Source: Eledone cirrhosa (lineage: Eukaryota). From it: a stretch of DNA of 64,000 nt. This document shows, piece after piece, positions 12,639 to 60,396 of this stretch. The stretch lies in contig OZ024743.1 in NCBI GenBank assembly GCA_964016885.1, positions 257,734,001-257,798,000 of the forward strand, given 5' to 3'. Numbering within the stretch: position 1 is the first letter of the stretch; every line of letters begins with the position of its first letter. Made by a program: the position numbers and the translations under genes. The notes under the pieces were generated by a model, which was given only the letters and a program-made list of their open reading frames with translations, searched no databases and had not been told where the DNA came from.

Positions 12639-12673
<35 letters not shown>

Positions 12674-12811
12674 TAGAAAGTGAGGTTTTTTTTTACAAAA
12701 TGAAAAATAACCGAGGTGTCCTACACGAGTGAAAGTATAAAGAAAAAGAGATGAAATCGAAAATGTAACTGGAGTCTTATTTTTTTTAAAAATATATATA
12801 TTTATTTGGTT

Positions 12812-12849
12812 CCTTTACCGGTTTCGCAGTTCTTCTGCTTTTCAAAAGG
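12812..12849 (-). ncRNA. Minimal HHR, U3-A8 variant, in a ~200-bp insert (12673-12882)
   Basis: CCTT-TTGAAAA-GCAG-AAGAA-CTGC-GAAAC-CG-GTA-AAGG on the minus strand. Confidence 0.75.
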
Positions 12850-12941
12850 TGAGTTGAGATGGAGGGTCTGTGGTTTTTCTCATACATACATATATATATA
12901 TACACATATATATATATACATATATATACATATATATATAC

Positions 12942-14731: not shown

Positions 14732-16167
<1,436 letters not shown>

Positions 16168-16825: not shown

Positions 16826-18895
16826 TATTGTTATACTTTAGGAGGGTCATGTTGCCAATAAGAAACACACGCACCAGTTGATTTCACTTCAATTTATTAT
16901 AATAAATTTATAAATTTATAAATTTCTGGTTGGTTGGTTGGTTGGTTCCACAACGAGATAGTTGTTTATATATTGTCATAGTTCTTTCGTCACACACTCT
17001 ATTCTTGTGTTACCGTATATATTTGTGTTGTTGTTGTTGTTGAACTCTTCTGTTAATGAGGTGTCGGCCATATTTATACCGTCAATTTTGTCGGGATATC
17101 TATTGGTATTCTCTATAGTATCCTGATTTAGCTTTATCTACTTAAGCCACTTTAGTTTCTTGTTAAAGTGCTTATCACATTCTTGAGTAATGTATTGTTC
17201 TTCAGGGCGTATAAGGCTTATAAATATTAGTTTCTCTCTTGGTGTGGTGATCCTAGCTATTTCTTGTATTAGGTTACGTTATGTTTTTCTTGATGACTTA
17301 ATTCTCTATAATCTTCTTTTTTATGTTTAGAATTAATGTTCGTTTTAGCCTATCTGTTTGTTTTTTGGTGAGTTGTAATCTTCTAACGTCGGTGTTGATG
17401 GTGTTGGTGTAAACTCGGGATGAGGCGCATTCTTTTATGAAGTGTAGTTGTCGAGATGTTATGGTTTTTCGTAGACAACAGAACATGGTGGTTTTCAGTA
17501 TCTTGTTAGCCTGGCTAAGGCTTACGATATTTCGTTTCTGAATTTGTTTAGCAAGATTCTTTATCTGAAATCGTGTGTTGAAACCGATATTGTTATACTT
17601 TGGGAGGGTGATGTTGCCAATAAGAAACACACGCACCAGTTGCTTCCACTTCAATTTATAATAATAAATGTATAATAAATTTATTAATTTATAAATTTCT
17701 GGTTGGTTGGTTGGTTCCACAACCAGATAGTTGTTTATATATATAGTCATAGTTCTTTCGTCACACACTCTGTAACCTCTTCAGTGACTGGGGATTCCTT
17801 TCTTTGTTTCTGTGCTTCTCCTTTGTTCTGTCCTACGCCATTTTGTTTCTGTGTATGTGTTGTGTGCTCAGTCTGCGCATGCGCCACATCCGGGTGTCTG
17901 TGTGTGTTTATGTTCATTTATTTATTTGTTTATTTACATGTTACTGGTTGGTTGTTTGTTCTATGTGTGTGTGTGTGTTTTCATTTTGTCCTTAATTGTA
18001 AGTTGTGATGTTGCTGTTCCACTCATATTTTCTATTTAATTTTCGTTGTAATTCTTTTATGTTTATTGCCTCTGTAATTTGTCTAAACATTGCGTCTTTT
18101 CTGTGTGTAGATTCTATTTTTATTTCTATGTTCTCTAATTTAGCCTTGTGTTCTATTTTAGCATGTTGGTAGAGTACAGATGATTCTTTACTATCTGGAA
18201 GGTCTCGCCAGTGTTCATTTATCCGTTCCCCTACACTACGAGCTGTCTCACCTATGTACACTATATTTTTGTCTCTACATTGTCCTTCAGTACATCTTAT
18301 GCTATACACTACATTTCTAGTTTTACAGTTAATATGGGGGCTTATTTTACAGGTTATACATTTCTTATCTATACATGAGGGTCTTTGAAAGGGGTATGTC
18401 TTGCTAATAAGTGTTTTTACGGAGGTACCTGGTCTTTCTACTATCTTAATATTGAGTTTATGTTTATTTAGGGCCCTTCTAAATTTGTAAGCTAATTCAC
18501 CTCTAGGGGTTGTATCGATGAACATTACACTCTGGTATTTATTGCTATCATACCATGAGTTTATTCTATTTGCCTTGTTCCTAGTTCTTTCTATTCTATT
18601 CCAAAATTTGCTCCTATACAAGGGACAGGTCCCATTTATGTTATTATTTACCATTTTTTCCCATTTAGTTCTGGCTCCTCTATACACTCTGATTTTATCT
18701 CTCTGATTGTAGCCAGAGAACTGAAGAGGTCACAGAGTGTGTGACGAAAGAACTATGACTATATATAAACAACTATCTGGTTGTGGAACCAACCAACCAA
18801 CCAGAAATTTATAGATTTATAAACTTATAAATTTATAAATATATTATAAATTGAAGTGAAGGCAACTGGTGCGTGTGTTTCTTATTGGCAATAAT
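16826..18895 (-). mobile_element. Composite Penelope-like element: inverted pLTR (18719-18895, +), GIY-YIG 3' ORF (17992-18720, -), pLTR, 5' ORF of the next tandem unit, partial pLTR
   Basis: CKTRNVVYSIRC...YIGETARS...; three copies of the pLTR; HHR at 17745-17789 (-) and a partial HHR from 18721 (+). Confidence 0.85.
17745..17789 (-). ncRNA. Minimal HHR in PLE pLTR
   Basis: Same motif as 9019-9063. Confidence 0.7.
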
Positions 18896-22962: not shown

Positions 22963-23017
<55 letters not shown>

Positions 23018-23040
23018 ATATATATACATGTATATATATA

Positions 23041-24843
23041 CAAAATGAGGGAGCAGCCATCGGCGTCAGCATAGCTGGTGATGTTGCCAACCTTTTCATG
23101 GTATGGTGGGAAAGGAGACTTAAAGATCTCCTTAATGAAAGCTCCATAGACCTCATCATGTACTCTCGTTATGTAGACGATATCAATATAGTTATAAGAA
23201 CACCCCCACTAGAGAGCACTAACAAGTTTGATTTAGAATGTAGCACGATGGAAAGCATCCAGCAGATAGCTAATTCCATACACCAGAGTATAACTGTAAC
23301 TATCGACTTCCCTTCCAAACACCCTAACGATAGACTACCTGTATTAGACACAGAACTCTGGATTAACACTATAGACGAGAGAGCCCAAATTCTCCACTCA
23401 CACTATGCTAAACCCATGGCCTCCAAATACCTCAGCAATGTCCAGTAGTGCTAAGTTTAATATTCTGATCGCAGATTTGGTACGAGTGATGAAGAATGTA
23501 TCCAGCATGTGCGACCCAACAGAAATGGAAAGACACATCCAACACTTCATCAACCGCATGCAGTTCTCTGGCTACAACCAAAGAGACAGAGTCAGAGTAC
23601 ACGAAGGAGCCATGGAAAAGTATAAGACTCTCATAGAACTGGACATGAAAGGAATTTGCCCATTATACAGGAGCAAATCATGGAATAGCTTAGATAGGGC
23701 TAGACATAAGATAGGGAAAGCCACCTCATGGTACGACAACCAGAGAGACCAGAGTGTCATGTTTGTGGACGCCACCCCTGGAGGGAAATTAGCTAACCAG
23801 TGTAGAAAGGCCCTCAGAAAGACGCACTTAAAAATAAAGGTGGTAGAAAAGTCAGAAACCACCATAAAATCCCTGATCAGCAAAACCTACCCTTTTAAGA
23901 AAACCCACTGTACCAATAGGAAATGTATCATATGTAAGGTGAAACCCCGGATAATGTGTAAAACTAGAAACGTAGTCTATAGCATAAGATGTACAGAGGG
24001 TACTTGCAGAAACATGACAACAACATACATAGGCGAGACAGCTCGTAGCATAGGTGAAAGGATAGACCAACACCGGGGGGAACTAAAAGGACGAAAAAAC
24101 GGGTCAGTACTATACGAACATGCTAGACAACAACATGACGGTAACATAGACAACATAGAAATTAGAATAATATCTAAACATAGAAATGACCCAGCAGATA
24201 AGCAAATCAGAGAGGCCAGTGAAATAGAAATTAGAAGACCAAAGCTAAACAGAAAGAAAGAATGGAATAACAACAACACCCAAACAAACAACACTGACCT
24301 AAGAGAAGTATAAATAAGTAAATAAAATAAGATAAATAAATACATACACAAGCACAATAACAACAAGCACATAAACACACACTAGTCACCCATCACACAG
24401 CAAACATAACACTATACACACACGCAAACGCATGCGCAAAGAAGACAAAATAAAATAAACAAACATGTAAATAAATAAATATATAGACAGACTGAATAAA
24501 AAATGGCGTAGACATACAACACAACAGGAGGAATATATAACACCACTGACGATGTTGCAGATGTGCAACGAAAGATTTATGATAAACTATATATATGCGT
24601 TTGTGTCTATATTGTATCTGTATTATTTTTGACCGTCGGTCAGTCAATGGCAACATTGAGGACCGAGTAAGTTAGATTACGGATATAAAAGACAGCGAGA
24701 AGCGAAAACCAACCAAACAGTGAGTGTGTTCTGTTATTAATTCTGGCAATATTACACAAATATCACCCTCCCCAAGTATAACAATATTTGTTTCGACACA
24801 CGATTTCATATAAAACAACCTCGCAAAACCAATTCATCGGCGC
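23041..24843 (+). mobile_element. 5'-truncated Penelope-like element (RT + Cys linker + GIY-YIG)
   Basis: GAAIG...RYVDDI...LPVLD; VVYSIRC...YIGETAR; degenerate HHR at ~24541-24583 (CTGACGA-T-GTTGC..GCAAC-GAAA). Confidence 0.9.
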
Positions 24844-24844
24844 T

Positions 24845-27694: not shown

Positions 27695-30600
27695 GCGTGT
27701 GTGTGTGCGTGTGTATATATAGCAGAGTCATTCGAAGGTCAAAAGATATTTTTCAGCTTTTGTCTTATACGGAGAAGTGCGCGTGTGTGTGTGTGTGTGT
27801 GTGTGTATAAGTCTCTTTGTATGTTGATGTACGTGTGTGTATGTGTTTGTGTATATATATGTGTGTGCGTGTGTGTGTGTGTGGGTGGACCAGTATTTTT
27901 TCCCCCTGGTAAAATGGTGTACATTATTCGATTTTTTCAGTAAAATCGGTTCTCTTAATAGAACATCAAAAATCTTAACAATAAAAGGTGTGAAATGATA
28001 TTCACTATATATATATACACATACACATATTCACTACATATATATATATATATATACATATATATATACATATATATGCACATATATTTTTTTGTATTGC
28101 ACCATAGAGCATGTGTGTTTACGTGTGTCATTGTGTTTATATGTGGGTAGAGATGTGTGCTGATGTAGGTATGTATGTTGACGTGTGTATGTTGTGGGTT
28201 CGTCTTAGGGAGAAGTGTTTAAACGGGGTCCGTATTTGTTAATGAAGTAAGATTCCTTGCTGATGCGCTGGGTGTGGGTGGCATTATCTTTAAATTTGTA
28301 GAGGGGAAAGATTCTGAAGTTGGGATGATTTTGGGCGGCACAGGTATCAATGTGTTCACTCAGTGGTATTTTCCTGTATTCCCGTATTTTAATTTGGGAT
28401 CTATGGACAGTCATGCGTTGGCGGAGGCTGTTTTTGGTCTGGCCTATGTATTGTTCTCGACAACCTGAACAAGTTAATACATATATTAGATTTTCCGATG
28501 CACATGTGAAATTGTGTTTTACTATAAAACGTTGTCCATCTTTGAAATAGAATTCCGAACCCTCTATTAGGTTGATGCAAATGCCACAGTTGGGTCTATC
28601 GCATTTTTTTACTGTGGGTTTCGTTGTTGTGGTTGGCAGTACTTTGGCATGTGTTAAGATGTTTTTCATTGACTTGGATTGTCTTTTGCTCTTTATGATA
28701 TCGTGTGTTCGTAGAATTTGGTTCATTCTATGGTCCTTTTTCAATACAGGGATGTTCTGGAGGATGGTGTCAAAGGCCTCATTGTTGAGGGGGTTGTGTG
28801 TGGAGATGTATGGAAGAGCTTTTAGTTTTGGTTGATTTACTTTAGGGTGTCTAAGGTCCTGGGTACTGAGTTTTAGGGCACGTTGGATTCCATTGTCAAT
28901 TAGTGATGCAGGGTAGTCCCTGCCTATGAGTGTGTCGTTTAGTTCTTGTAGCCGTAAGTAGCAGATGTTTTTATTGGAGACTATAGTACAGATTCTCTTG
29001 GCTAAGTTGTAGGGAATATTAATTTTAACGTGTCTAGGGTGGCAAGAGTTGAAGGGGAGATATTGCTTGGAGTCTGTGGGCTTGTAGTATATGTCTGTTT
29101 CTATTTTTTTTGTTATGGATCTTAATGAGGATGTCGAGGAAGGGGAGTTGTTGATGGCTGTATTCCATCGTGAAGTTAATATGTGTGTTGAGCCCATTTA
29201 TAAGGGTGTGAAATTCTTTAAGTTTTTCGATGTTTTCGTGCCAAAGGATGAAGCAGTCATCTAGATATCGCTTCCAGTTCCTTTCAATGTGTAAGTGGAG
29301 GGTGTTTCCAAATTTGTTTAGGACTTTAGTGTAGAGGGTGATTTCCAGGTATCCCATGACTAGGTTGGCATAAGTAGGGGCTGTTTTCGTTCCCATAGCG
29401 GTCCCAGATTTCTGCCTGTAGGGTTTGTTATTGAAAACGAAGTAATTGTTCTCCAAGATAAATTTGAGTCCCTCTATCACGAATTCTTTTTTGATGCGTT
29501 GTGGGAGTTCATTGTGGAAATTATCCAGCCAGAATTGGATAGCTTCTATTCCTAGGTTGTGGGGGATGTTGGAGTATAGGTTGACTACATCGAACGTCAC
29601 TAGTAGGGTTTGTTCAGAAAGTGGCATATTAGGGAGGTGATTGAGCATATCTAGGTCGTCCCTTATATAGCTTTTGATGTGCTTGAGGAAGGGTTTGAGA
29701 AGGGTATCAATGAAGTTGCTAAGACGGTGCGTTTCGCAAGCGGGGCCTGCTATTATAAGTCTTAATTTGAGATCATTGGGTGAGGGGAAATTGATGACTA
29801 TGTCTGTGACTTCCTTGCATGCCTTACTGATTGATTCGCTTTTATGTACTTTAGGGATACCGTAGAAAAGGCTGGATTTACTTGTGAAGTCTGTGATGAA
29901 GCTGAATTCCTTGTTAGTGAGTCCTTCTTTGTATTGGTTGATTAGAGTTTTTAGGTTTCTCATAATTTTCTGTTGATTGTAGTGTTCAGCCTTTTCGTAG
30001 TATGTTTCGTTTTCCAAAGTGGAGAGCGCTAAGTTGATATAGAATTCTGTCTCCATTAGGACTACTGTACTCCCTTTATCAGCCTCTTTAATTGTAATGG
30101 TTCTGTCGGTTTTTAATCTATTTAATTCTTCCCATTCTTTCTTGTTGAGGTTTGGCTTGTGTTTTTTTCTGTGCAAGTGTTGGTAAGGGAAGTTTGTGAT
30201 GTGTTCACAGAATTCGTCCAGGATTTTATTTCTACCTTTTGCTTCTATTTCTGGCTAATGATTCATCCTCATTGTACTGGTCGAATAGTTGTTCACTAAG
30301 TCGTAACTTTCTACAGAAGTCTGTGATGTCTTCCTTCATTTCATAGTAGTTAGGACGTAGTGGGGTCGGTGTGAATTTAAGACATTTGGAGAGTAAGTTG
30401 ATAAGGTTGGGTGTTGGTTCTGCACTAGTAAGATTGATAATTTTTATTACTATCGGTTTTTCCTCCCTGTCTTGTGTTATTTTGTTTGCCTGTATCTGTG
30501 TGCTGTGTCTAAAAAATGGTTGGGGTAGAGGGGTTGTCTGCTGATGTTAAGTGGTCTCCTGTGTTTGTTATATTCCTTGTTGTTGTAAAATGTGGTTCGG

Positions 30601-30942
30601 GTTGGTGGTTGTAGATTGAATGGGGTGTTCCTGAAACTGCGAGTATGGGTGTGTGTTTCTATGTGCCATGTTGTATTGTGGTGTTATAAGTGGCCTACGT
30701 TGTTGGTTGTATCGTGTGGTGTGGGTTTGTTGTGTATTGTGGAAGTGAGAGTTGAGAAAATGGTAATTACCTTGCTGTCCCCTTGAAGCGGGGAAGTTGT
30801 TGCATCTATCATGGCGGTGGTATCTTTTCCCTATGTTTGACGATGAGGAATCCGCGTAGTAGTTGAGTGATTTGGTATGGTGTCTCCTTGAAGGGGGAAA
30901 GTTGTAAATGTCATTCTGGGGGAGATGATTTCTTGGGTTTTT
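27042..30942 (-). mobile_element. Penelope-like element (Neptune-like), largely complete, frameshifted
   Basis: ADKG, FYGIPKVHK, FDVVNLYSNI, GTAMG, RYLDD (29034-30176); CDRPNCGIC...TCASENLIYVLTC...YIGQT (28205-29197); frameshift in a T-run ~29105; decayed HHR ~27163-27205. Confidence 0.92.
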
Positions 30943-31003: not shown

Positions 31004-31161
31004 TATATACATATATATATATACATATATATATACGTGAGTATAGACATAGAATATTCGAAAATATTCTGTATGTTTATAATAAACATTTTGAAGACCT
31101 AATCGCTATAGAATAGAATACGTCACGTATTACAATTAGATTCTCGATAAAAGCAAGGGAA

Positions 31162-31204
31162 GTAATCTACGCGTTTCATTCTTGTTAGAATTCATCAGGA
31201 CTAC
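31162..31204 (-). ncRNA. Minimal type I HHR, first of 9 minus copies (every 310 bp to 33642)
   Basis: Reverse complement of 34145-34187. Confidence 0.9.
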
Positions 31205-34144
31205 ATATCCAGTGCTTTTATCGAGAATGACACAGCTAGAGACTTATAGAATACTTAGCTGTGTACTGGAACTGGTTTGAAAGAGCGGTTGCCGGTCCGG
31301 CAGAAATTAGAAATTGGAATAAATGCTCTGAAATAGCGATATATATGTGAGTATAGACATAGAATATTCGAAAATATTCTGTATGTTTATAATAAACATT
31401 TTGAAGACCTAATCGCTATAGAATAGAATACGTCACGTATTACAATTAGATTCTCGATAAAAGCAAGGGAAGTAATCTACGCGTTTCATTCTTGTTAGAA
31501 TTCATCAGGACTACATATCCAGTGCTTTTATCGAGAATGACACAGCTAGAGACTTATAGAATACTTAGCTGTGTACTGGAACTGGTTTGAAAGAGCGGTT
31601 GCCGGTCCGGCAGAAATTAGAAATTGGAATAAATGCTCTGAAATAGCGATATATATGTGAGTATAGACATAGAATATTCGAAAATATTCTGTATGTTTAT
31701 AATAAACATTTTGAAGACCTAATCGCTATAGAATAGAATACGTCACGTATTACAATTAGATTCTCGATAAAAGCAAGGGAAGTAATCTACGCGTTTCATT
31801 CTTGTTAGAATTCATCAGGACTACATATCCAGTGCTTTTATCGAGAATGACACAGCTAGAGACTTATAGAATACTTAGCTGTGTACTGGAACTGGTTTGA
31901 AAGAGCGGTTGCCGGTCCGGCAGAAATTAGAAATTGGAATAAATGCTCTGAAATAGCGATATATATGTGAGTATAGACATAGAATATTCGAAAATATTCT
32001 GTATGTTTATAATAAACATTTTGAAGACCTAATCGCTATAGAATAGAATACGTCACGTATTACAATTAGATTCTCGATAAAAGCAAGGGAAGTAATCTAC
32101 GCGTTTCATTCTTGTTAGAATTCATCAGGACTACATATCCAGTGCTTTTATCGAGAATGACACAGCTAGAGACTTATAGAATACTTAGCTGTGTACTGGA
32201 ACTGGTTTGAAAGAGCGGTTGCCGGTCCGGCAGAAATTAGAAATTGGAATAAATGCTCTGAAATAGCGATATATATGTGAGTATAGACATAGAATATTCG
32301 AAAATATTCTGTATGTTTATAATAAACATTTTGAAGACCTAATCGCTATAGAATAGAATACGTCACGTATTACAATTAGATTCTCGATAAAAGCAAGGGA
32401 AGTAATCTACGCGTTTCATTCTTGTTAGAATTCATCAGGACTACATATCCAGTGCTTTTATCGAGAATGACACAGCTAGAGACTTATAGAATACTTAGCT
32501 GTGTACTGGAACTGGTTTGAAAGAGCGGTTGCCGGTCCGGCAGAAATTAGAAATTGGAATAAATGCTCTGAAATAGCGATATATATGTGAGTATAGACAT
32601 AGAATATTCGAAAATATTCTGTATGTTTATAATAAACATTTTGAAGACCTAATCGCTATAGAATAGAATACGTCACGTATTACAATTAGATTCTCGATAA
32701 AAGCAAGGGAAGTAATCTACGCGTTTCATTCTTGTTAGAATTCATCAGGACTACATATCCAGTGCTTTTATCGAGAATGACACAGCTAGAGACTTATAGA
32801 ATACTTAGCTGTGTACTGGAACTGGTTTGAAAGAGCGGTTGCCGGTCCGGCAGAAATTAGAAATTGGAATAAATGCTCTGAAATAGCGATATATATGTGA
32901 GTATAGACATAGAATATTCGAAAATATTCTGTATGTTTATAATAAACATTTTGAAGACCTAATCGCTATAGAATAGAATACGTCACGTATTACAATTAGA
33001 TTCTCGATAAAAGCAAGGGAAGTAATCTACGCGTTTCATTCTTGTTAGAATTCATCAGGACTACATATCCAGTGCTTTTATCGAGAATGACACAGCTAGA
33101 GACTTATAGAATACTTAGCTGTGTACTGGAACTGGTTTGAAAGAGCGGTTGCCGGTCCGGCAGAAATTAGAAATTGGAATAAATGCTCTGAAATAGCGAT
33201 ATATATGTGAGTATAGACATAGAATATTCGAAAATATTCTGTATGTTTATAATAAACATTTTGAAGACCTAATCGCTATAGAATAGAATACGTCACGTAT
33301 TACAATTAGATTCTCGATAAAAGCAAGGGAAGTAATCTACGCGTTTCATTCTTGTTAGAATTCATCAGGACTACATATCCAGTGCTTTTATCGAGAATGA
33401 CACAGCTAGAGACTTATAGAATACTTAGCTGTGTACTGGAACTGGTTTGAAAGAGCGGTTGCCGGTCCGGCAGAAATTAGAAATTGGAATAAATGCTCTG
33501 AAATAGCGATATATATGTGAGTATAGACATAGAATATTCGAAAATATTCTGTATGTTTATAATAAACATTTTGAAGACCTAATCGCTATAGAATAGAATA
33601 CGTCACGTATTACAATTAGATTCTCGATAAAAGCAAGGGAAGTAATCTACGCGTTTCATTCTTGTTAGAATTCATCAGGACTACATATCCAGTGCTTTTA
33701 TCGAGAATGACACAGCTAGAGACTTATAGAATACTTAGCTGTGTACTGGAACTGGTTTGAAAGAGCGGTTGCCGGTCCGGCAGAAATTAGAAATTGGAAT
33801 AAATGCTCTGAAATAGCGATATATATGTGAGTATAGACATAGAATATTCGAAAATATTCTGTATGTTTGTAGATTACTTCCCTTGCTTTTATCGAGAATC
33901 TAATTGTAATACGTGACGTATTCTATTCTATAGCGATTAGGTCTTCAAAATGTTTATTATAAACATACAGAATATTTTCGAATATTCTATGTCTATACTC
34001 ACATATATATCGCTATTTCAGAGCATTTATTCCAATTTCTAATTTCTGCCGGACCGGCAACCGCTCTTTCAAACCAGTTCCAGTACACAGCTAAGTATTC
34101 TATAAGTCTCTAGCTGTGTCATTCTCGATAAAAGCACTGGATAT

Positions 34145-34187
34145 GTAGTCCTGATGAATTCTAACAAGAATGAAACGCGTAGATTAC
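34145..34187 (+). ncRNA. Minimal type I HHR, first of 9 plus copies (every 310 bp to 36625)
   Basis: GTAGTC-CTGATGA-ATTC-TAACAA-GAAT-GAAAC-GC-GTA-GATTAC; palindromic ACGCGT stem III; GUA triplet. Confidence 0.92.
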
Positions 34188-36828
34188 TTCCCTTGCTTTT
34201 ATCGAGAATCTAATTGCAATACGTGACGTATTCTATTCTATAGCGATTAGGTCTTCAAAATGTTTATTATAAACATACAGAATATTTTCGAATATTCTAT
34301 GTCTATACTCACATATATATCGCTATTTCAGAGCATTTATTCCAATTTCTAATTTCTGCCGGACCGGCAACCGCTCTTTCAAACCAGTTCCAGTACACAG
34401 CTAAGTATTCTATAAGTCTCTAGCTGTGTCATTCTCGATAAAAGCACTGGATATGTAGTCCTGATGAATTCTAACAAGAATGAAACGCGTAGATTACTTC
34501 CCTTGCTTTTATCGAGAATCTAATTGTAATACGTGACGTATTCTATTCTATAGCGATTAGGTCTTCAAAATGTTTATTATAAACATACAGAATATTTTCG
34601 AATATTCTATGTCTATACTCACATATATATCGCTATTTCAGAGCATTTATTCCAATTTCTAATTTCTGCCGGACCGGCAACCGCTCTTTCAAACCAGTTC
34701 CAGTACACAGCTAAGTATTCTATAAGTCTCTAGCTGTGTCATTCTCGATAAAAGCACTGGATATGTAGTCCTGATGAATTCTAACAAGAATGAAACGCGT
34801 AGATTACTTCCCTTGCTTTTATCGAGAATCTAATTGTAATACGTGACGTATTCTATTCTATAGCGATTAGGTCTTCAAAATGTTTATTATAAACATACAG
34901 AATATTTTCGAATATTCTATGTCTATACTCACATATATATCGCTATTTCAGAGCATTTATTCCAATTTCTAATTTCTGCCGGACCGGCAACCGCTCTTTC
35001 AAACCAGTTCCAGTACACAGCTAAGTATTCTATAAGTCTCTAGCTGTGTCATTCTCGATAAAAGCACTGGATATGTAGTCCTGATGAATTCTAACAAGAA
35101 TGAAACGCGTAGATTACTTCCCTTGCTTTTATCGAGAATCTAATTGTAATACGTGACGTATTCTATTCTATAGCGATTAGGTCTTCAAAATGTTTATTAT
35201 AAACATACAGAATATTTTCGAATATTCTATGTCTATACTCACATATATATCGCTATTTCAGAGCATTTATTCCAATTTCTAATTTCTGCCGGACCGGCAA
35301 CCGCTCTTTCAAACCAGTTCCAGTACACAGCTAAGTATTCTATAAGTCTCTAGCTGTGTCATTCTCGATAAAAGCACTGGATATGTAGTCCTGATGAATT
35401 CTAACAAGAATGAAACGCGTAGATTACTTCCCTTGCTTTTATCGAGAATCTAATTGTAATACGTGACGTATTCTATTCTATAGCGATTAGGTCTTCAAAA
35501 TGTTTATTATAAACATACAGAATATTTTCGAATATTCTATGTCTATACTCACATATATATCGCTATTTCAGAGCATTTATTCCAATTTCTAATTTCTGCC
35601 GGACCGGCAACCGCTCTTTCAAACCAGTTCCAGTACACAGCTAAGTATTCTATAAGTCTCTAGCTGTGTCATTCTCGATAAAAGCACTGGATATGTAGTC
35701 CTGATGAATTCTAACAAGAATGAAACGCGTAGATTACTTCCCTTGCTTTTATCGAGAATCTAATTGTAATACGTGACATATTCTATTCTATAGCGATTAG
35801 GTCTTCAAAATGTTTATTATAAACATACAGAATATTTTCGAATATTCTATGTCTATACTCACATATATATCGCTATTTCAGAGCATTTATTCCAATTTCT
35901 AATTTCTGCCGGACCGGCAACCGCTCTTTCAAACCAGTTCCAGTACACAGCTAAGTATTCTATAAGTCTCTAGCTGTGTCATTCTCGATAAAAGCACTGG
36001 ATATGTAGTCCTGATGAATTCTAACAAGAATGAAACGCGTAGATTACTTCCCTTGCTTTTATCGAGAATCTAATTGTAATACGTGACGTATTCTATTCTA
36101 TAGCGATTAGGTCTTCAAAATGTTTATTATAAACATACAGAATATTTTCGAATATTCTATGTCTATACTCACATATATATCGCTATTTCAGAGCATTTAT
36201 TCCAATTTCTAATTTCTGCCGGACCGGCAACCGCTCTTTCAAACCAGTTCCAGTACACAGCTAAGTATTCTATAAGTCTCTAGCTGTGTCATTCTCGATA
36301 AAAGCACTGGATATGTAGTCCTGATGAATTCTAACAAGAATGAAACGCGTAGATTACTTCCCTTGCTTTTATCGAGAATCTAATTGTAATACGTGACGTA
36401 TTCTATTCTATAGCGATTAGGTCTTCAAAATGTTTATTATAAACATACAGAATATTTTCGAATATTCTATGTCTATACTCACATATATATCGCTATTTCA
36501 GAGCATTTATTCCAATTTCTAATTTCTGCCGGACCGGCAACCGCTCTTTCAAACCAGTTCCAGTACACAGCTAAGTATTCTATAAGTCTCTAGCTGTGTC
36601 ATTCTCGATAAAAGCACTGGATATGTAGTCCTGATGAATTCTAACAAGAATGAAACGCGTAGATTACTTCCCTTGCTTTTATCGAGAATCTAATTGTAAT
36701 ACGTGACGTATTCTATTCTATAGCGATTAGGTCTTCAAAATGTTTATTATAAACATACAGAATATTTTCGAATATTCTATGTCTATACTCACATATATAT
36801 CGCTATTTCAGAGCATTTATTCCAATTT

Positions 36829-38383
<1,555 letters not shown>

Positions 38384-38384
38384 A

Positions 38385-39640
38385 TTTTAATTTTTAATTT
38401 CTGCCTCACCGGCAACCGCTCTGTATAATCAGTTCCTGATTATTTATTAGAATTCTATAAGAATATAACATCAGTGATCTCAGTAGACAGGAGGGAGTAG
38501 TTAGCCTTGATAAGCATCAATAAATGCGAAACAAGGCCTTGTTGGCTTATCTCCCTTGTTTGCTGAGATTAAAGTAAGTGACTTTGTCACTACGCTAAAA
38601 CAATAGCATACGGTCTTCAAAATCCTTTTAATTAAGCATAAAGTGTATTGCAAAATACATTATATATACATTCATATATATATTGCTATTTCAGAGCTCC
38701 AATTCTAATTTTTAATTTCTGCCTGACCGGCAACCGCTCTGTATAATCAGTTCCTGATTATTTACTAGAATTCTATATGAATATAACATCAGTGATCTCA
38801 GTAGACAGGAGGGAGTAGTTAGCCTTGATAAGCATCAATAAATGCGAAACAAGGCCTTGTCGGCTTATCTCACCTTGTTTGCTGAGATTAAAGTAAGTGA
38901 GTTTGTCACTACTCTAAAACAATAGCATACGGTCTTCAAAATGCTTTTAATTAAGCATAACGTGTATTGCAAAATACATTATATATACATTCATATATAT
39001 ATATTGCTATTTCAGAGCTCCAATTCTAATTTTCAATTTCTGCCTGACCGGCCATCGCTCTGTATAATCAGTTCCTGATTATTTACTAGAATTCTATAAG
39101 AATATAACATCAGTGATCTCAGTAGACAGGGGGGAGTAGTTAGCCTTGATAAGCATCAATAAATGCGAAACAAGGCCTTGTCGGCTTATCTCCCCTTGTT
39201 TGCTGAGATTAAAGTAAGTGAGTTTGTCACTACTCTAAAACAATAGCATACGGTCTTCAAAATGCTTTTAATTAAGCATAAAGTGTATTGCAAAATACAT
39301 TATATATACATTCATATATATATATTTCTATTTCAGAGCTCCAATTCGAATTTTCTATTTCTGCCTGACCGGCCATCGCTCTGTATAATCAGTTCCTGAT
39401 TATTTATTAGAATTCTATAAGAATATAACATTAGTGATCTCAGTAGACATGAGGGAGTAGTTATCCTTGATAAGCATCAATAAATGCGAAACAAGGCCTT
39501 GTCGGCTTATCTCCCCTTGTTTGTTGAGGTTAAAGTAAGTGAGTTTGTCACTACTCTAAAACAATAGCATACGGTTTTCAAAATGCTTTTAATTAAGCAT
39601 AAAGTGTACTGCAAAATACATTATATATACATTCATATAT
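38385..39640 (+). repeat. ~320-bp tandem array, ~3.9 units, second retrozyme-like family
   Basis: CTGCC anchor at 38401, 38719, 39040 and 39361; HHRs at ~38503, 38821, 39142 and 39463; copies differ by a few percent. Confidence 0.9.
38821..38865 (+). ncRNA. Type I HHR, U3-A8 variant (best of 4 copies)
   Basis: AGCC-TTGATAA-GCAT-CAATAA-ATGC-GAAAC-AAGGCCTT-GTC-GGCT; 12-nt palindrome ACAAGGCCTTGT; GUC triplet. Confidence 0.85.
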
Positions 39641-39654
39641 ATATATATATATAT

Positions 39655-39755
<101 letters not shown>

Positions 39756-39883
39756 CATACATACATACATATATATATATATATACATACATATATATAT
39801 ATACATACATATATATATATATATACATACATATATATATATATATATATACATACATACATACATATATATATATATATACA

Positions 39884-39919
<36 letters not shown>

Positions 39920-40099
39920 TATATACAAGTATACATACATATATATATATACATATATATACATACATATACATATATATATATACATATATATATACAT
40001 ACATATATATACATATACATATAAAATACATATATATACATATATATACATATATATATATATATACATATATATACATATATATATGTATATATATAT

Positions 40100-41842
40100 A
40101 TGGAGAGAGCGGTTGACAGATCTGGATGTAAGGAGAGCTGGATGATCATCAACGAGATCACAGGGAGGAAGAAAAGGTGTTCGAGTCAGATCCAGGGAAC
40201 GGGGCCCGAGGATAGGAAGAGGAAATGGCTAGACCATTTTAGGACCCTACTAGGAGAGCCACCCTCCACAGCCCAGAGCACTGGGGAGATCAGGCGGCTG
40301 TTTGAGGAACTGGATGTTGAGACAGAGCCCTTCACCAGAGGGGAGCTTGAGAGAGCCAAGAAGAAGATCAAGGAGGGCAGGGCTCATGGAGAAGATGGAG
40401 TGGCATCAGAGGTGATGAAGAGGTGTGATTTTGATGATATCATCCTGGGGTTCTGTAACGGGGCACTGGAGAAAGGAGTTGCCCCGAATCAGTGGAGGAT
40501 CAGTAACATCGTCCCAGTGCCAAAGAAGGGAGATCACTCTGACACCAACAACTACCGGGGGATCTCACTGATGTCACTTGTGGCAAAGACCCTCAACAGG
40601 ATGATTCTTAACAGGATCCAGCCTGAGATGGAGAAGAAGCTCAGGGACAACCAGAACGGCTTCAGAGAGGGTAGATCAACCACCTGTCACATCCTGATGC
40701 TGAGGAGGATATTAGAAGGAGCTAGAGCAAAGTGCCTTCCTGCGGTCATGGTTTTCATTGACTTTAGGAAGGCCTTTGATTCTGTGGACCGTTACTGCCT
40801 GATGAAGTTCTTACAGGCTTATGGAATCCCCAAGAAGATAGTGGACCTGATATCACTGCTCTACACCAACACCAAAGCCCAAGTCATTACACCTGATGGG
40901 ATGACAGATTTCTTTGAGATACTGGCTGGAGTGCTCCAGGGAGATACATTGGCTCCATACCTTTTTGTCATCGTAGTGGACTATTGTATGCGCCTTGCAC
41001 TGGAGAAACACCAGGACACTGGCTTTACTGTAGCACCGGCTCAGAGCAGGAGAGTTGGGGCGAAAAAGGTATCGGATGCTGAATTTGCCGACGACATAGT
41101 TTTGGTGACAAATACAGTGAAGGAGGCAGAGGATTTGATGCGGGAGGTTGAGACTGTGTCGATGAATGTGGGGCTGAGAATGAATGAGACTAAAACAAAA
41201 TATCTGGTAGAGAATGTTGAGAAGCCAGAGGGGATCACTAATGTAGGCGGGAAGCCGCTGGAATTGGTTGAGGACATCCTGTATTTGGGAGCAAAGATTG
41301 GGAATACGGAGTATGATGTGGTTGAGAGGAAGAGCAAGGCCTGGGCGGCGTGTCACAGCTTGAGATCGGTGTGGAAGTCGGACCTTCGTAGAGATCTGAA
41401 AATCCGCCTCTTCATTGCTGTAGTGGAGTTTGTGCTGCTGTATGGATCTGAGACTTGGATACTGACCAAGAGACTCACTCAGATGGTGGATGGGTGCTAC
41501 ACGAGAATGCTGAGGATGGCTCTGAACATTAATCAGTATACACTGAGGATGAAAAACTCAGAGCTGTATGGGAGCATCCCAAAAGTCAGCTCAAAAGTGA
41601 CACAGAGGAGACTGAAGTTGGCTGGACATACTCACCGACATCCAGAGTTGACATTGCACTCAGTGCTCCTTTGGGAGCCCCTACATGGACACACTAGAAG
41701 AGGAAGACCAAGGTTAACATATGTTGATGCCCTCAGGACAGACACTGGTCTGTTGGAGATGCAGGATATGGCAGCGATAATGAGGGACAGAGACCGCTGG
41801 AGAGAACTCGTCCATGGATCTCGGGAATTTTACCCGCCTTAG
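40100..41842 (+). mobile_element. 5'-truncated RTE-like LINE, uninterrupted 580-aa RT frame
   Basis: [38 protein letters not shown]; stop followed directly by (TAGA)n. Confidence 0.93.
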
Positions 41843-42281
41843 ATAGATAGATACAGAAATATATACATATATATATATATACATATATATATATACATAC
41901 ATATATATACATATACATATAAAATACATATATATACATATATATACATATATATATATACATATATATACATATATATATATACATATATATATACATA
42001 CATATATATACATATACATATAAAATACATATATATACATATATATACATATATATATATATACATATATATACATATATATATACATATATATATATAT
42101 ACATATATATATACATACATATATATACATATACATATAAAATACATATATATACATATATATACATATATATATATATACATATATATACATATATATA
42201 TACATACATATACATATATATACATTTATATATATAAAAAAATATATACATATATATATAAATACATATATATATATATAC

Positions 42282-42939: not shown

Positions 42940-45900
42940 TCAGGATTTGGGCACCATGGCCCATTCGAGAAGAGAATTACTGTTTGCGGAGACATATCCG
43001 GGTGTGGGTGGTTTGTCCGGGATTACTTGGAGGAATTTGTCCAAAGACTTCTTGAATTTTGTGTGGTCAGTTTCTGTTTTGACGTGTCCTGGTGTGATGT
43101 TGAAGAGAGCAGGGCCGATTGAGGTGAAATAATTGTGCCGTATTGTTGTTATGAGTTGCGATTTAGATTTTTGAATGGGACGGATAGCACGGGGCCCAAG
43201 CCTTGGGTGTATCTTGAAGGCGATGCCAACATCATTTGGGCAGTGATGATGGAACATTTTCCACATCATGCAGATAATATAACGCTCACGGCGACGTTGG
43301 AGTGAGTAAAGTTTCAGGTTTTCTAATCGACCCCAGTAGTCAAGGTCTGACATGCCATCTATCTTTTTCGTGATTGCCCTTTGAGGAGCTTCAAGTTTCA
43401 TGATACTTTGTTTCGTGTGGGGAGACCACAGTGGACAACAGTATTCAAGGTGTGGTCGGGTAAAAGTAGAGAAGAGAAGGATAATGGTGCGGGAATCTCT
43501 CGACTGGAAGGTTCTGAGGATCCAGGAACACATTCTGCGGGCCATGTCAACTTTGCTGCTTATATGCGTGGTCCAGCTTATGTTGCTGTCCACGGTTACT
43601 CCCAAGTCTCTGATGTTGTTAGATGCCACGAGAGTTTCCCCGGAGGGAAGGGAGTACGGGAGTTTCAGAGTATCCTCTTTTCCAAAGTGGATCAGTTCGA
43701 ATTTGTCTTCGTTCAGTAACATGTTGTTCTTTTCTGCCCATTGGGTAACAGCCAGTAGGTCTGACTGAAGGCTTATCCGGTCATCCACGCCATTGATGAC
43801 CTTTTGGAGCTTGGAATCATCAGCGAAAATTTTAATGTTGCTGTGTTTCATGATGTCAGTGATGTCATTAATATAGATGATGAAGAGAAGTGGGCCCAAC
43901 ACAGTGCCTTGTGGGACCCCACTACTGACTTTGGCTGGGCTTGATTTGACTCCCTCAACTACAACATGTTGGGTTCTGTTTGACAGGAAGATCTTGATCC
44001 ACTGCAGCAGCTTTCCAGTGACACCAATATTGGACAGCTTTCTCAGTAGAATGTTATGATCAACCCTGTCAAAGGCCTTGCTGAAATCAAGGTAGATAAC
44101 ATCAGTGTTGGAACCCTCTCCCAAGGCTCTCAAAATGTCATCAAAGTGATGCAGTAGCTGCGTCAGGCAATCCCTTCCATTACAGAATCCATGCTGGTTG
44201 GAGTTCAGCATATTGTTACTCTCAAGGAAGTGGGTCATTCGCGATCTCACCACTCTCTCAAATACCTTAATGATATGAGAGGTGAGTGAGATTGGACGGT
44301 AATTCACGGCAAGGGATTTGTTTCCCTTTTTGAAAACTGGGACAACAGACTGGGATAGAAGGTTTTCTGGCACATATCCAGCATCCAGTGAGTTCCGCCA
44401 CAGATTGGCAAGAGGAGATGCAAGTTGGTGTTGACACGCCCTCAAGACACAAGCAGGGAACCTATCGGGACCTACTGCTGAATTATGCTTGATTTCCTTT
44501 ATTGCCGCCAAGACATCAGGGGCGCCAAACGTTATGTCCGATAAGGTGTAATGGGGAGTAACATCGCCGATACAGCCCAGATCGGCCATATCAGGATTGC
44601 TGAAAACAGAGCAGTATTGTTTCTGCAGTATCTCACCCATGGTTTTAGCATTGTCTTGAAGAGTGCCATTTTCATCAATTAGAGGGCCAACAGTAGAGCC
44701 AGTGATTTTGTGTTTTTTTGCAAATGAAAAGAACACTTTGGGATTGAGTTTGATCTTCTCAATGGCCCAGGCCTCTTCAGCTCTTCTCTGATTTTTGATG
44801 AGGGACATTATGTTATTTTGGAGGTTATGTTTTTTAATCTCTAGTGATGAAATGGCAGTCAAGTTGATGTGTTGCTGCTGACAGTATTTCAGCTTGTTGA
44901 TTTTTTTGTTCGTTCTCTTAATTTTTCTGATGAGCGTTTTTCTATTTCTAGGGATTCTGCTCTTAGATTTGTTTTTAGTTCTTAATGGGGTGTGTTTAGC
45001 ACATATGTTTGTAACAGTGTCCACAAATGTCTGCCAGGACTTTTTGATGTTGGTGGGTGTATGAGTGTGCGTGAAGGACCAGTCGACATGTGCAAGATCA
45101 TGACTGATCGCTTCCCAGTTTGCATTGTGGAAATCCATAGCGTCAAACGGATGGACAGGAGAGATGACATTGGGTTTGTATATTGGACGGTGGAATCTCA
45201 GATCACAGAGAACCATGTCATGATCAGAGAGTAGAGTTTTCTCCACTGCAATATTGTGGATATTGTCAGTGTGATTGCTGAAAATTAAGTCTAGGACGTT
45301 TTTGTGGCACCTGGTTGGTTCGAGCACCAATTGGGATAGGAAGAAATCATCCATGAAGTCAAGAAGCGATTCCACAGCTTCCCTGTCAGAGGTTGAGGCA
45401 GAAGAACCTGGTGGCAGGCTGTTTGTAGACCAGTCAACTCCGGGGAGGTTGAAGTCCCCCATCATTAAGATGTTGTCAGGGTGACACTCTTGGATGAAAC
45501 ACTTTATGCTGTTGAGGCATTCCTTGAAGCATGGTACAGGCGTTTGGGGTGGCCTATAGAGCCCAACTACTAATAGGTTGTTGGTTTGACTGAATACAGT
45601 GACTGCTTCACAGTATCCATTAGTGAATATGTTCATAGCCTCTGTTGAGAAAGAATTATGGACATAAATGGCAGTTCCGCCCTTTCTTCTGCCAGCGCGA
45701 TCAGCACGGATGGCTTTGAAATTTTTCACTTTCACCTCGGCTTCCAAGTGGAGGTTACTGAGATGGGTTTCAGTGAGGACGAAGAAAGGGATGTGGTTTG
45801 GATGGACATCAATCCAGTCCTCCAGGAATTTGATCTTCCATTTTTGAGTATTGGTGGAAGGGCTGATGCCTTGGGCGTTAAGCAAAAATGTAGAGGCGAG

Positions 45901-45960
45901 AGTGGATGGTTTTAATTGTTTTGGTGTGTTGTTAATTTGTTTGTTTGTTAATGGCAGCAA
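42940..45960 (-). CDS. LINE ORF2: AP endonuclease + reverse transcriptase (1006 aa, intact)
   Basis: [50 protein letters not shown]. Confidence 0.93.
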
Positions 45961-46705
45961 TGGGAGTTTGTGCAGTGGGGTGACAGTGGAGGGTGGTGCT
46001 GGGTGATAGCTCGAATGTTTTTTTCCAGTTCTTTTGCCAGATTCATTATGGCTAAAAAAGAGGAAGAAGTTTCCTGTTTAGAAGACTGTTGGTGACTGTG
46101 GTAGTGGTTATTTTTATGTAGGTTATGGTTTTTGTTTTTGCTTTTATTTTTATTTTCATTTGTCCGACGGGTCCCCGGGAGATGGGTAAAGGGACAATCC
46201 CGGTCTAAACACAATCTGTCTCGCAGGGAAAAGCGGCAGATTTGTGGATTTCTTGTTTGAGTTATTGGTGGTTGTGTTGGTGTTAAATTAGAGTATGTAT
46301 TATGGTGGTGGCTGTTTGTGGGGATAGATCGTTTTGTCCTAGGTAAATGGGTGAATTTGCAGCCACTATCCGTACATATTCTATAGCGTAGAGAGTAGCG
46401 GCAAATGATGGGGTTTCGAGTGGGTGGGTATGTGGGTGTGTGTGTTGTGAGAGGTGTAGATGATGGTTTGGGTAGGATTTGACGACCTTTGTGGACTGTG
46501 GGAGGGAGAGTTCTTGTTCTGGTATTAGAAGGTAAATTCCTTGACATAGCAGTAGACAAAAATGTTGTAGTAGTAGTAGTAGTAGTAGGCAGAGATGTTG
46601 GCAGTGGTGATGATTGGACTGCTGGGCCAGAGAAAGGATGTGGCGTTTCATGCTGTGAGACAGAGGCTACTGGGGGTCAATAGTTTCATTTAGTAGATCG
46701 GCCAT
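45948..46705 (-). CDS. LINE ORF1 with two CCCH-type fingers; one frameshift at ~46672-46676
   Basis: [20 protein letters not shown] and [20 protein letters not shown]; one extra C in the C5 run would join [10 protein letters not shown] to the finger frame. Confidence 0.65.
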
Positions 46706-48707: not shown

Positions 48708-51700
48708 TAGCAACTAACAGTGCTGCGATCGAATGTGGCTTTTTAGCCCAGCCAATGATCTAAAATGTCTTGCACAGAGTCGGCAACCAAAACATTCACT
48801 GGGAATAGTCGGCTGTGGTTGGAGTTCGTGTACTTTTGCATGTCGCTTGAGCCCTCCTGCTGATTTACATTCTCTACCACATGTTTGGCAAGCATGATGA
48901 GTAGCATCTCCAACACAAGCCTGGTAGTCAATCACTGGTCTTACTTTATGACTGCGAAGATGACTTTCGAGTCCAGCTTTGCTTAGGCAGAGTCTAGCAC
49001 AGACGCTGCATGTCAGAACCATAGGAGGACCCTCGCCGTCTGGAAGTGCAACAGCAATGCCCTTCCTCACGTCCCGCTTTACTTTCTCGTGTGCGATTCG
49101 AGATGCCTCAAAGGCAACTTTTCCCTCATATACAGTCTTTCTCCATTTATTACGATCAGTAGCAATATTTTCCCATGTATCAGCAGAGATGTTAGAGTCT
49201 TTCAGAGAGGCTTTCAAGGAATCCTTATACCTCTCTTTTGGTTTATGTTGCGGTCGTTTTCCTTTAACCAACTCTCCATAGAAGAGTTGTTTAGGTATTC
49301 TAGAATCATTCATCCTGGCAAGGTGGCCACTCCAACGGAGTCGTTGCTTAAGCACAAGAGCTTCTATACTGTCACACATAGAGCTTTCCAAAATCTCGAC
49401 ATCACTGATGTGGTCCCTCCAGTGAACGCCATGGATCCGTCTGAGACACATCTGATGGAAACGCTCCAATTGCTTAAGGTGGCGTCGATATGTGACCCAG
49501 GTCTCGCAGGCATAAAGAAGACAAGAGAGTACACATGCCCTGTACACCTTTACCTTTGTCCTCCTGCATATGTCTCGCCGACCCCAGAGTCGCCTGTCTA
49601 GCTTTCCGAAAGCATCACTTGCTTTCCTAATCCTAAGTGAGATTTCACTGTCAAGGTTGCCGTATCGATTGAGAGTGCTTCCCAGGTAGACAAACTGATC
49701 AACCACTCCAAGTCGTTTGCCATACACATAGATGTTTGGTTCAGTGTACTGCTTACTAGGGGCAGGTTGGTACATGACAACGGTTTTCTTGAGACTGACA
49801 GTCAAACCCAGGGCAGTGCAAGCGTCAGAAAATACATTCAAAATGTGCTGCATATCACTCTCTGTGTGCGCTACAAGATCGCAATCATCTGCATACAAGA
49901 GGTCTCTTATGACTGATGTAAATACTTTTGTCTTCGCAGCAAAGCGCCTGATGTTAAATATGCTGCCTGAGGTTCGATATCGGATGTAAACACCATGCTC
50001 GCAATTCCTGAATGCAATACAGAAAACCATTGCAAAGTATATGGCAAACAGGGTCGGTGCTGGAATATCCCCCTGTTTCACTCCATTTTTTACTGAGATA
50101 GGCTCCGACATGTTACCTCCGACATTAACCCAAGCCTTCATGTCGTCATGGAAAGACCTAACTAAAGCAAGGAACTTATCAGGGCAACCATGTTTCTGGA
50201 GAACCTTCCATAATGCATCTCTGTTGACAGTATCGAAAGCCTTTGTCAGATCGACAAAAACCTGATACAGATCCAAGCCCTGTTCAATGCACTTCTCCTG
50301 GAGCTGTCTAGCTGAGAAGATCATATCAGTAGTGCCGCGTCCAGCACGAAAACCAGATTGACTTTCAGGAAGGACACAATCTGCAATGTGTGTCAGCAGA
50401 TGGTCCAGAAGCACCCTACATAAAACTTTACTTACGACAGAAAGCAATGATATACCTCTGTAGTTCCCACAATCATTCCTGTTACACTTCCCCTTGTACA
50501 AGACCACCATTACTGCATCTCTCCAGTCCTCAGGCACGGATTCATTAGCCCATATCCTTCCAAACAGAGAGTGAAGATGTTGCAGGAGTCTCTCACCACC
50601 ATATTGTAGGAGCTCAGCATGTATGCCATCCATACCTGTAGATCTTCCACTGTTCAGCTTGGAAATAGCCACTGCAACCTCCACAAGCGTCGGAGGTTCT
50701 GCGAGAGCTACTTTCACAGGACTTTCCGGAATGAGATTGAGGAAATCTTCACTGGCCACAGACGGCTGATTCAAAAGATCATCAAAGTGCTCTCGCCACC
50801 TTCGTAGAATTCCCTGTGAGTCACGAAGAAGTTCTTTGCCATCCTTGCTGCGAATCGGTGTCACCAGAGAAGAAGACGGTCCATAAACCTCACGCAAGAG
50901 ACTGTACAACAGCTTTGTGTTATTGCAATCAGACGCAGTTTGTATCTCACCAGCCTTCTCACTCCACCACTGATCCTTCATCTGAGAAAGACTCCGCCTA
51001 ACACGTGATTTTACATCCCTGAGCTCCTTATGCAACGTATTCCTCTACCGGGGTTTTGCCGTCAAGTAGCGTGACAGAGCACGCCTCTTATCAGCCAACA
51101 AGTCTTCTATATGTACATCATTCTCATTAAACCAGTCCTGATGTTTTCTCTGCACCAATCCCAGAACACGTCTGCCTACATCATAAACCGACTTTTTAAG
51201 GGTCGGCCAATCCTCACCAAGATCTGCAGCCTGCATCTCTTCTTCCAATGTTCTCTTCACATGTTTATCCTTAAGACGAGCAGCATTCAATCTTTTGGGC
51301 AGGGTAACACCAGGAGCCCGGATTTTACGTTTGGTGATTAGATTCACTTTTGCGCGTACCAGGCGGTGGTCCGTCCAGCACTCAGCTCCACGAAGAACAC
51401 AAACACACTGCACATCCTGTCTGTCACGCATTCTGACTAGGACGTAGTCCAAAAGATGCCATTCCTTAGATGCAGGATGCATCCATGTGGTCTTGAATTT
51501 GTTCTTTTGTTGGAACATGTTGTTGGTAACACACAGATCCAGCTCCTCACACATCTGCAGCAAGAGCATACCATTGCTGTTACACTTTCCCACCCCATGC
51601 CTTCCGATTACATTCCATGTGTTAAAATCCCTACCCACTCTAGCATTAAAGTCACCAAGCACGATGACTTTGTCTGCCTGAGGGATATTTCTTAGAACAC

Positions 51701-52266
51701 CTTTCAAGGCATGGTAAAAGGACAGTTTTTCTTCATCGACAGAATTCATAGTTGGAGCATACACACTCACCAGGGTAGCATATCTTCCCTTGTCCAGCGG
51801 AACTCTCATGGACATAAGACGCTCACTAATCCCTACTGGGAACTCTTCCAATTTATTCACCAGCACAGTCTTAACAGCAAATCCTACCCCAGCATCTCTT
51901 CTGGTTCCTTCATCTCTTCCTTTCCAGAAGAATGTATATTCTCCACAAAATTCCGTAAGATGACCATCTCCAGCTAATCTCGTCTCAGATAAAGCCACGA
52001 TGTCAAGATCGTAACGTCGAAGCTCCTTTGCAACAAGAGCGGTCCTTCGTTCAGGACGCTCCAAAGAATCCCTGTCAAGCAGCGTCCGTACGTTCCAGCA
52101 GCCAAGACTAGATGCCCTGTTTGGCTCTATTACAATGGCACGATGACGGGCGGGCCCAGGTTGTGATAACTTGGGACCCCTGCCCTTATTGCCAATGATC
52201 TTTTTTGTTCCAGAACCCAAATTGGCAATTATCTCGTTTACATTGTTCTGGAACATCATTGAATTG
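48345..52266 (-). mobile_element. Near full-length RTE (BovB-like) LINE
   Basis: Single APE-RT frame; 3' UTR interrupted by (CA)n and (TAA)n; terminal motif TGGCCATACTCG..AACGAG..GGCAGCCA.CA at 48345-48385. Confidence 0.9.
48714..52250 (-). pseudogene. RTE ORF (APE + RT + three C2H2-type fingers) with one in-frame TAG at 51045-51047
   Basis: ORFs 51045-52295 and 48714-51035 are in the same frame; WNVRTL, LSETR, GDFNARVG, TDHRL, LYADD, CxxC...HxxxH repeats. Confidence 0.9.
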
Positions 52267-52440
52267 GTAAAAAAAAAAAAAAAAAGTAATAACAATAGTA
52301 ATAATAATAATAATAATAATAATAGTACACTATCAATAATTATTAATGCACTCGTGCAATGCCTGTGCGTGACGAATATTTTTAAAGTGAGGACAGACTG
52401 TGCACTGAGCCAATCCCACTCTCTGAGAGACAGTAGCTAT

Positions 52441-60146: not shown

Positions 60147-60256
60147 TTTCAGAAATTCATATAATATTTTGCTTAAAGAACTTTGTACAATAAGAAATAT
60201 TATGTTGTCTGTATGGTAAATTCTATTCTATCACGTGTGTGTGTATATATATATAT

Positions 60257-60287
<31 letters not shown>

Positions 60288-60396
60288 TCTATATATACAC
60301 ACTCACATGATAGAATAGAATTTACCATACAGACAACATAATATTTCTTTATTGTGCGAAGTTCTTTAAGCAAACAATTATATCAATTTTCCGAAA
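60147..60396. repeat. Imperfect inverted repeat, ~100-bp arms around TA/CA microsatellite
   Basis: ATATTATGTTGTCTGTATGGTAAATTCTATTCTATCA and its reverse complement at ~60309-60345. Confidence 0.85.

Follow-up and report, generated by a model that had tools for sequence, protein, structure and literature searches.

Two kinds of mobile element offer the closest comparison with the repeat described here: the metazoan non-LTR retrozymes (Cervera and de la Pena 2020, PMC7229834; Li, Clavereau and Pollet 2026, 10.64898/2026.07.22.740005) and the Penelope-like elements (PLEs), represented by Poseidon PAc (PMC11167929), Naiad/Chlamys and the non-autonomous MRC1 (PMC8557442). In the available portions of these papers, PLE insertions are described as having a tail, an inverted arm and a bias toward microsatellites (Craig et al., PMC8557442). 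Two internal RT start sites delimit the tail, and both strands of the target are cut and extended (Frangieh et al., PMC11167929). As for the hammerhead ribozyme, U3-A8 is a natural core covariation and is cited as active in vitro in the accessible text of Perreault 2011 (PMC3088659, citing Przybilski and Hammann 2007), and the original prediction, made from the DNA letters alone, already took it as known that U3-A8 variants can be active. Minimal hammerheads (min-HHRs) with U3-A8 are also reported from the Cercyon PLE of Schistosoma mansoni, with about 1,300 matches (PMC4209133, available text). That is, the U3-A8 swap alone is already known, both in nature and in animal Penelope elements.

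The window, i.e., the whole stretch of 64,000 nucleotides analyzed, belongs to a 3.0 Gb animal genome rich in (TA)n, LINEs and PLEs. It contains an array of a repeat that we call B1 (Table 1). We propose that this array is probably one decayed insertion of a non-LTR retrozyme, in which the RT/endonuclease of a PLE would have copied a predicted circular monomer in trans. A tandem array with units of ~320 bp had been predicted, and Tandem Repeats Finder places it at 38384-39646, with a period of 321, 3.9 copies and 96% matches. Its tandem units fall within 150-450 bp, each has a type I hammerhead, and GC is below 50%. The longest ATG ORF in the unit has 45 aa; the unit is thus noncoding. An ORF for RT plus GIY-YIG, the mark of an autonomous PLE, is absent from the unit, and B1 is dispersed in multiple copies over many contigs. 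On its sequence features, B1 is a non-LTR retrozyme.

Table 1. Features of the B1 array and its neighbors, in window positions.
Feature	Position	Strand	Remarks
B1 retrozyme array	38385..39640	+	~3.9 tandem copies, 319-321 bp; single arm, 5'-truncated; GC 33%
Hammerhead, copy 1	38493..38557	+	U3-A8 core 38507-38513; cleavage triplet GUU
Block AATTTCTGCC..ACCGGCAACCGCTCT (copy 2)	38714..38740	+	small hairpin; GCTCT pairs with tail AGAGC in consensus fold
Hammerhead and enclosing stem, copy 2	38795..38888	+	core 38825-38831, palindrome 38849-38860, C17 38861; intact
Block GGTCTTCAAAATG (copy 2)	38931..38943	+	conserved, mostly unpaired
Internal TA run, insertion end site 1	38985..39005	+	inferred RT start site 1
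Tail GCTATTTCAGAGC...TTCTAAT	39006..39030	+	insertion end site 2 (inferred RT start site 2) lies at its end
Hammerhead and enclosing stem, copy 3	39116..39209	+	core 39146-39152, C17 39182; intact
Hammerhead, copy 4	39453..39517	+	core 39467-39473; stem I pair broken
B1 array 3' end, at site 1	39620..39646	+	runs into (TA)n 39622-40101
(TA)n microsatellite	36828..38385	.	separates 310-bp array from B1 array
Sister family A array	31029..36828	.	310 bp, C3-G8 core
Family A minus arm	31029-33868		ends at site 1
Family A plus arm	33869-36828		ends at site 2

Each of the four copies has a type I hammerhead whose core reads UUGAUAA instead of CUGAUGA, as predicted (TTGATAA at 38507, 38825, 39146 and 39467). 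A 4-bp stem II, GAAA and the expected palindrome, the 12-nt ACAAGGCCTTGT, are present in 4/4 copies, and the enclosing stem, said to differ in sequence from that of the sister family and still to pair, is likewise present. The GUC triplet is found in copies 2-4, with GUU in copy 1, and a G>T change in copy 4 disrupts one stem I pair. The expectation of intact stems and a GUC triplet is thus borne out by copies 2 and 3 and fails for the other two. The hammerhead region of copy 2 folds at -41.1 kcal/mol (z -5.65), with 0 of 200 shuffles equally good.

A whole-window Rfam search returned nothing at gathering and recovered neither the B1 nor the family A hammerhead; the 150 E-value rows listed for the window are microsatellite-driven miRNA matches. 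The top row by E-value, below the cut-off, is a near-perfect inverted repeat of ~135 bp at 60203-60338. On the HH9 model (RF02275), B1 hammerheads score 18-23 bits, below the gathering cut-off of 52, and family A, with its canonical core, also scores ~23 bits. Covariance models are therefore not specially blind to the U3-A8 core. It had been claimed that canonical-core searches would miss B1; this holds for fixed-core descriptors but not for covariance models.

B1 was expected to share blocks with the 310-bp unit of family A. The blocks are there, but the likeness is not restricted to them: the two units are colinear end to end, with identity in 211 of 329 columns (64%) and an alignment score of 250, as against a mean of 97 and a maximum of 128 for 300 shuffles. 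Nor are there merely two diverged families. Genome searches with real copies reveal a ladder of at least seven subfamilies: A, A2, B4, B5 (one copy), B3, B2, B1.5 and B1, the last being that of the focal array. C3-G8 is found in A/A2, B4 and B5, and U3-A8 in B3, B2, B1.5 and B1. In a midpoint-rooted tree of 48 real monomers, the U3-A8 subfamilies form one clade, on a branch with support 100/99. On this tree, a single change from C3-G8 to U3-A8 took place on the branch leading to B3/B2/B1, and three or more subfamilies spread after the swap. That lineage went on spreading, so its variant core probably works or is at any rate tolerated. Genome-wide, 18,056 exact matches to the shared upstream block were counted, mostly family A among the 100 matches listed. 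The core of the B1-B3 type has 1,532, with U3-A8 in all of the first 100, and the focal hammerhead has 125 exact matches; reversed-sequence controls gave 0.

The part of the prediction that concerns conserved structure stands. Covariation was checked in 21 real copies from several subfamilies, and 21 of 45 named pairs had changed on both sides; the rows are related, so the covariation events are fewer than the changed cells. In this alignment, 93.8% of cells pair, whereas slid controls give 36-46%. In alignment A4, one stem I column is displaced by a gap, and the four A rows have one hairpin in the wrong register. Two-sided changes affect 3/4 pairs of stem I, 4/4 of stem II and 2/4 of stem III. 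The 3-8 pair, predicted to be compensatory, is present in 21/21 rows, as U-A in 12 and C-G in 9, with 0 mismatched; on the tree, this covariation amounts to one phylogenetic event.

A second U3-A8 hammerhead (UUGAAAA, palindrome ACCGGT) lies at 12816-12845 within 12673-12880 (-), and was also seen in loci L209-L223 and L233-L237. It has 10,767 exact genome matches. In L234 it lies downstream of a 770-aa PLE-like frame, and there are two 3' ends ~62 nt apart. Further unrelated type I hammerhead families were found in locus flanks (L016:3140-3200, L117:2221-2260, L133).

For the 3' ends of the insertions, we used 40 B1 loci (43 fetched, 3 overlapping dropped), which are best BLAST hits, so that young copies are over-sampled. 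Among their 68 arms, 34 end at the internal TA run (site 1), 28 at the end of the tail (site 2) and 6 elsewhere. Head-to-head pairs combine site 1 with site 2 in 20-21 of 25 cases, and none of the 25 is a same-site pair. When five subfamilies are pooled, site 1 and site 2, ~26 nt apart and both joined to (TA)n, are combined in 71 of 96 head-to-head pairs; the others are same-site (5), have an 'other' end (18) or are cut (2). The counts elsewhere on the ladder are 27/30 for A, 12/18 for B2, 8/13 for B3 and 3/10 for B4. The combination of tail, inverted 5'-truncated arm and microsatellite target found in these 71 pairs is Penelope-like. Three ORF-bearing Penelope families of the host genome have the same two-end pattern, with tails of ~41, 58 and 62 nt.

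The focal array has one arm, which stops at site 1 (~39640), as had been claimed for both arrays. For the 310-bp array, the claim is true of the minus arm only; the plus arm ends ~26 nt past the TA run. This family A array is the younger of the two and sits across the same TA run as the B1 array. Many B4 copies stop at the same place although this subfamily has no pure TA run; long pairing with the target is thus not needed. Since the insertions end at the TA run and the tail, these fit the role of RT start sites. The insertion ends lie in (TA)n, where a target-site duplication is illegible. The 5' ends of B1 insertions are scattered. A family A junction in the window lies 3 nt from the cleavage site, and a start of arms at that site was considered; it was ruled out, as only 2 of 68 B1 5' ends lie within 10 nt of the cleavage site, against 4.3 expected. 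Spacing across the cleavage site is constant in 77 of 78 B1 crossings, i.e., there is no scar.

The shared blocks had been proposed as RT-recognition or transcription signals. The first proposal agrees with the finding that the TA run and the GCTATTTCAGAGC block are where insertions end. In the consensus fold, the pairing of AGAGC in the tail with GCTCT in the upstream block is invariant. The second proposal finds no backing in the host genome's U6 promoters: none of the shared blocks occurs in the U6 upstream regions of 15 host loci, several of which show an octamer/TATA. An snRNA-type promoter was ruled against on this ground. Block TTCTATAAG might be TATA-like, which is a guess. The U6 genes include a tandem snRNA cluster at L291-L301 (G000:C19, about 31.78-31.84 Mb), several copies of which have a repeat in place of the upstream octamer region.

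A non-PLE retrotransposon could in principle have moved B1, as RTE- or CR1-like LINEs are abundant in the window. One LINE fragment with an RT is found 460 bp downstream, at 40101-41843 (+), and a related one at 14832-15683 (-), both in TA runs; we take them to be RTE-like. Long LINE-type frames also lie between microsatellites, at 42940-46077 (-; 1045 aa) and 48714-52436 (-; 776 + 463 aa). The B1 array has no 3' end in common with the fragment at 40101-41843, and the available text of PMC11167929 and PMC8557442 treats two alternative internal 3' ends, used in complementary fashion by inverted arms, as specific to PLEs. Mobilization by a LINE is scarcely credible on these grounds, even though a search for a PLE whose tail matches had no success among the families sampled. 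That search covered three PLE families found by protein or hammerhead, plus hammerhead families in locus flanks. None of the sampled PLE families, with tails of ~41, 58, 62 and 90-95 nt, has a tail of 26-30 nt, and no terminal repeat matching the unit was seen among the few autonomous PLE families sampled.

Several PLEs reside in the window. A very young family at 28205-30941 (-), also seen in loci L244-L263, has RT + GIY-YIG, many 784-aa frames and a 41-nt tail; among the matches listed, 150 scored matches equal the query or differ from it very little. U3-A8 also occurs in the hammerhead-like motif of this family, where GCAA replaces GAAA in every copy listed; the motif may have a doubly variant core or be dead. 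An abundant family with a minimal hammerhead (17298-18894 and 22963-24844; loci L149-L178) has a 58-nt tail that falls within the beginning of the ORF, like that of anole PAc, as far as the available description of the latter goes. A PLE-like element at 9718-12178 (+) has a hammerhead with a long stem II at 12085-12139, and its family and relatives have tails of ~90-95 nt.

B1 might instead be a satellite-like repeat that arose from the terminal repeat of a PLE and multiplied locally at the DNA level, through slippage or unequal crossover, an origin proposed in the discussion, as available, of 10.64898/2026.07.22.740005. Copies of the B1 array diverge by 3-4%, so that the array is not clonal, and two adjacent copies have two variants in common, which fits some local duplication or conversion. 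However, the copies are dispersed over many contigs and have fixed 3' ends and inverted arms with complementary ends, and no ORF-bearing element with the B1 terminal repeat was found among the PLE loci fetched. We regard this account as highly improbable, and satellite-like amplification as the main route is largely refuted.

We return to the PLE-copied retrozyme, which would move as follows. A multimeric transcript would self-cleave after GUC, and the cleaved monomer would be ligated into a circle. The PLE protein would nick both strands of a TA microsatellite, and cDNA would begin at two internal sites, the TA run and the tail end. Synthesis running round the circle would yield arms of more than unit length. 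Bearing on the template, 11 of 13 two-armed family A insertions have their own monomer haplotype across the copies of both arms, unlike the window haplotype, and few single-copy changes; these are mostly position-ordered loci. This is in keeping with passage through a single monomer, for which a circle is the simplest form. All 20 best-hit family A loci matched the query haplotype. For B1, where the contrast is weak, shared non-reference letters number 3.8 per kb within loci vs. 3.0 between, figures dominated by one reference-specific site. Three insertions join subfamilies, with B2 and B3 arms (L106:1466-2494), B3 then B2 (L108:1134-1770), or B5 then B3 (L126:1147-1780); thus, two RNAs can take part in one event, or the template can be switched.

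The template could also be an uncleaved, linear, multimeric read-through RNA mobilized by a PLE, with the hammerhead weak or dispensable and no circles formed. According to the available text of PMC11167929, hammerhead mutants of an anole PLE left insertion in vitro unaffected, so that cleavage was dispensable there, and 8/9 Xenopus retrozyme dimers are without cleavage in 10.64898/2026.07.22.740005, as far as that preprint is available. The heterogeneity of the focal array, the short B arms (mostly 1-2 copies) and the predicted dominance of an inactive fold (see below) are all in keeping with such a template. On the other side, the two-sided changes keep stems I-III and the 3-8 pair, which calls for selection on the ribozyme fold, and the family A insertions are each clonal yet mutually different, which linear multimers would not maintain. 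We consider a linear template unlikely.

The best predicted fold of copy 2 would be inactive: GCCUUG, i.e., the 5' strand of stem I plus U3-U4-G5, pairs with CAAGGC of the palindrome. This off-state helix is 4 bp long in B4, 5 in B5, 4-8 in B3, 7 in B2 and B1.5, and 6 in B1. That it is special to U3-A8 was ruled out, as it already has 4 bp in B4, a C3-G8 subfamily. In the helix, 95.8% of cells pair, with two-sided changes in 2/7 pairs; the covariation events are few. ViennaRNA, whose model leaves out Mg and tertiary contacts, places the active monomer fold above the ensemble by a median of 4.9 kcal/mol in 29 B1 copies, 1.4 in B3 and 6.5 in B4. The energy gained by B1 on dimerization is marginal, at 1 to 7 kcal/mol for each pair with loop penalties still to be subtracted. 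The family A palindrome has 6 nt and is unable to form a stable monomer stem III. As a hypothesis from folding, the off-state helix would keep the B1 monomer mostly off.

A further proposal, which we find possible though rather doubtful, is that a retrozyme swapped its 3-8 pair and tuned an off switch, with cleavage triggered by multimers or by a PLE and the circle copied by a PLE dimer. The alternative partner of position 3 in the palindrome would form C-G in B4/B5, U.G in B3/B2 and, after a change in the palindrome, U-A in B1. The monomer circle would stay uncut, and cleavage in multimers would be turned on by the 12-bp palindrome or by binding of the PLE protein. A PLE dimer would then start at the two internal sites and copy the circle into the two strands of a TA microsatellite.

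How does B1 compare with the known systems? As in metazoan non-LTR retrozymes, its units are noncoding, tandem, 150-450 bp long and low in GC, with a type I hammerhead in each; a palindromic stem III and co-occurring PLEs, the proposed mobilizer, are also common to both. It differs from the retrozymes of the available descriptions in its U3-A8 core with a 12-bp palindrome. Retrozymes are defined also by linear and circular monomer RNA, which is predicted for B1. The short palindrome of family A resembles those of amphibian hammerheads that require dimers (PMC7229834, available text). Retrozyme papers, in the parts accessible, propose PLE involvement from co-occurrence and phylogeny, whereas B1 insertions show a PLE tail and inverted arms; in the openly accessible literature, preprint supplements aside, we found no description of a Penelope footprint for retrozymes. 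The insertion ends thus offer genomic support for the proposed mobilization of animal retrozymes by Penelope elements, and they name two start sites for the existing in vitro PLE assay.

The compensatory 3-8 change of B1 is identical to that of the Cercyon min-HHRs and of natural core variants. Unlike Cercyon min-HHRs, as described in the available text, B1 has a full-length type I hammerhead in a non-autonomous tandem repeat, and both states are on one tree. A natural series from C3-G8 to U3-A8 is resolved on this tree within one mobile RNA family, which went on spreading after the change, and its sister ribozymes allow a test of how far a swap of the hammerhead 3-8 pair is tolerated in vivo. 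Together with the Penelope footprint and the off-state helix predicted from folding, the series makes a testable system. Like the PLEs of the comparison set (PAc, Naiad/Chlamys and MRC1), going by the accessible descriptions, B1 has two adjacent internal 3' ends that delimit a tail, an inverted 5'-truncated arm, AT-rich or (TA)n targets, and a hammerhead upstream of the start sites; unlike them, it has no ORF, its arms hold multiple copies of a 320-bp unit, and its tail is ~26 nt long.
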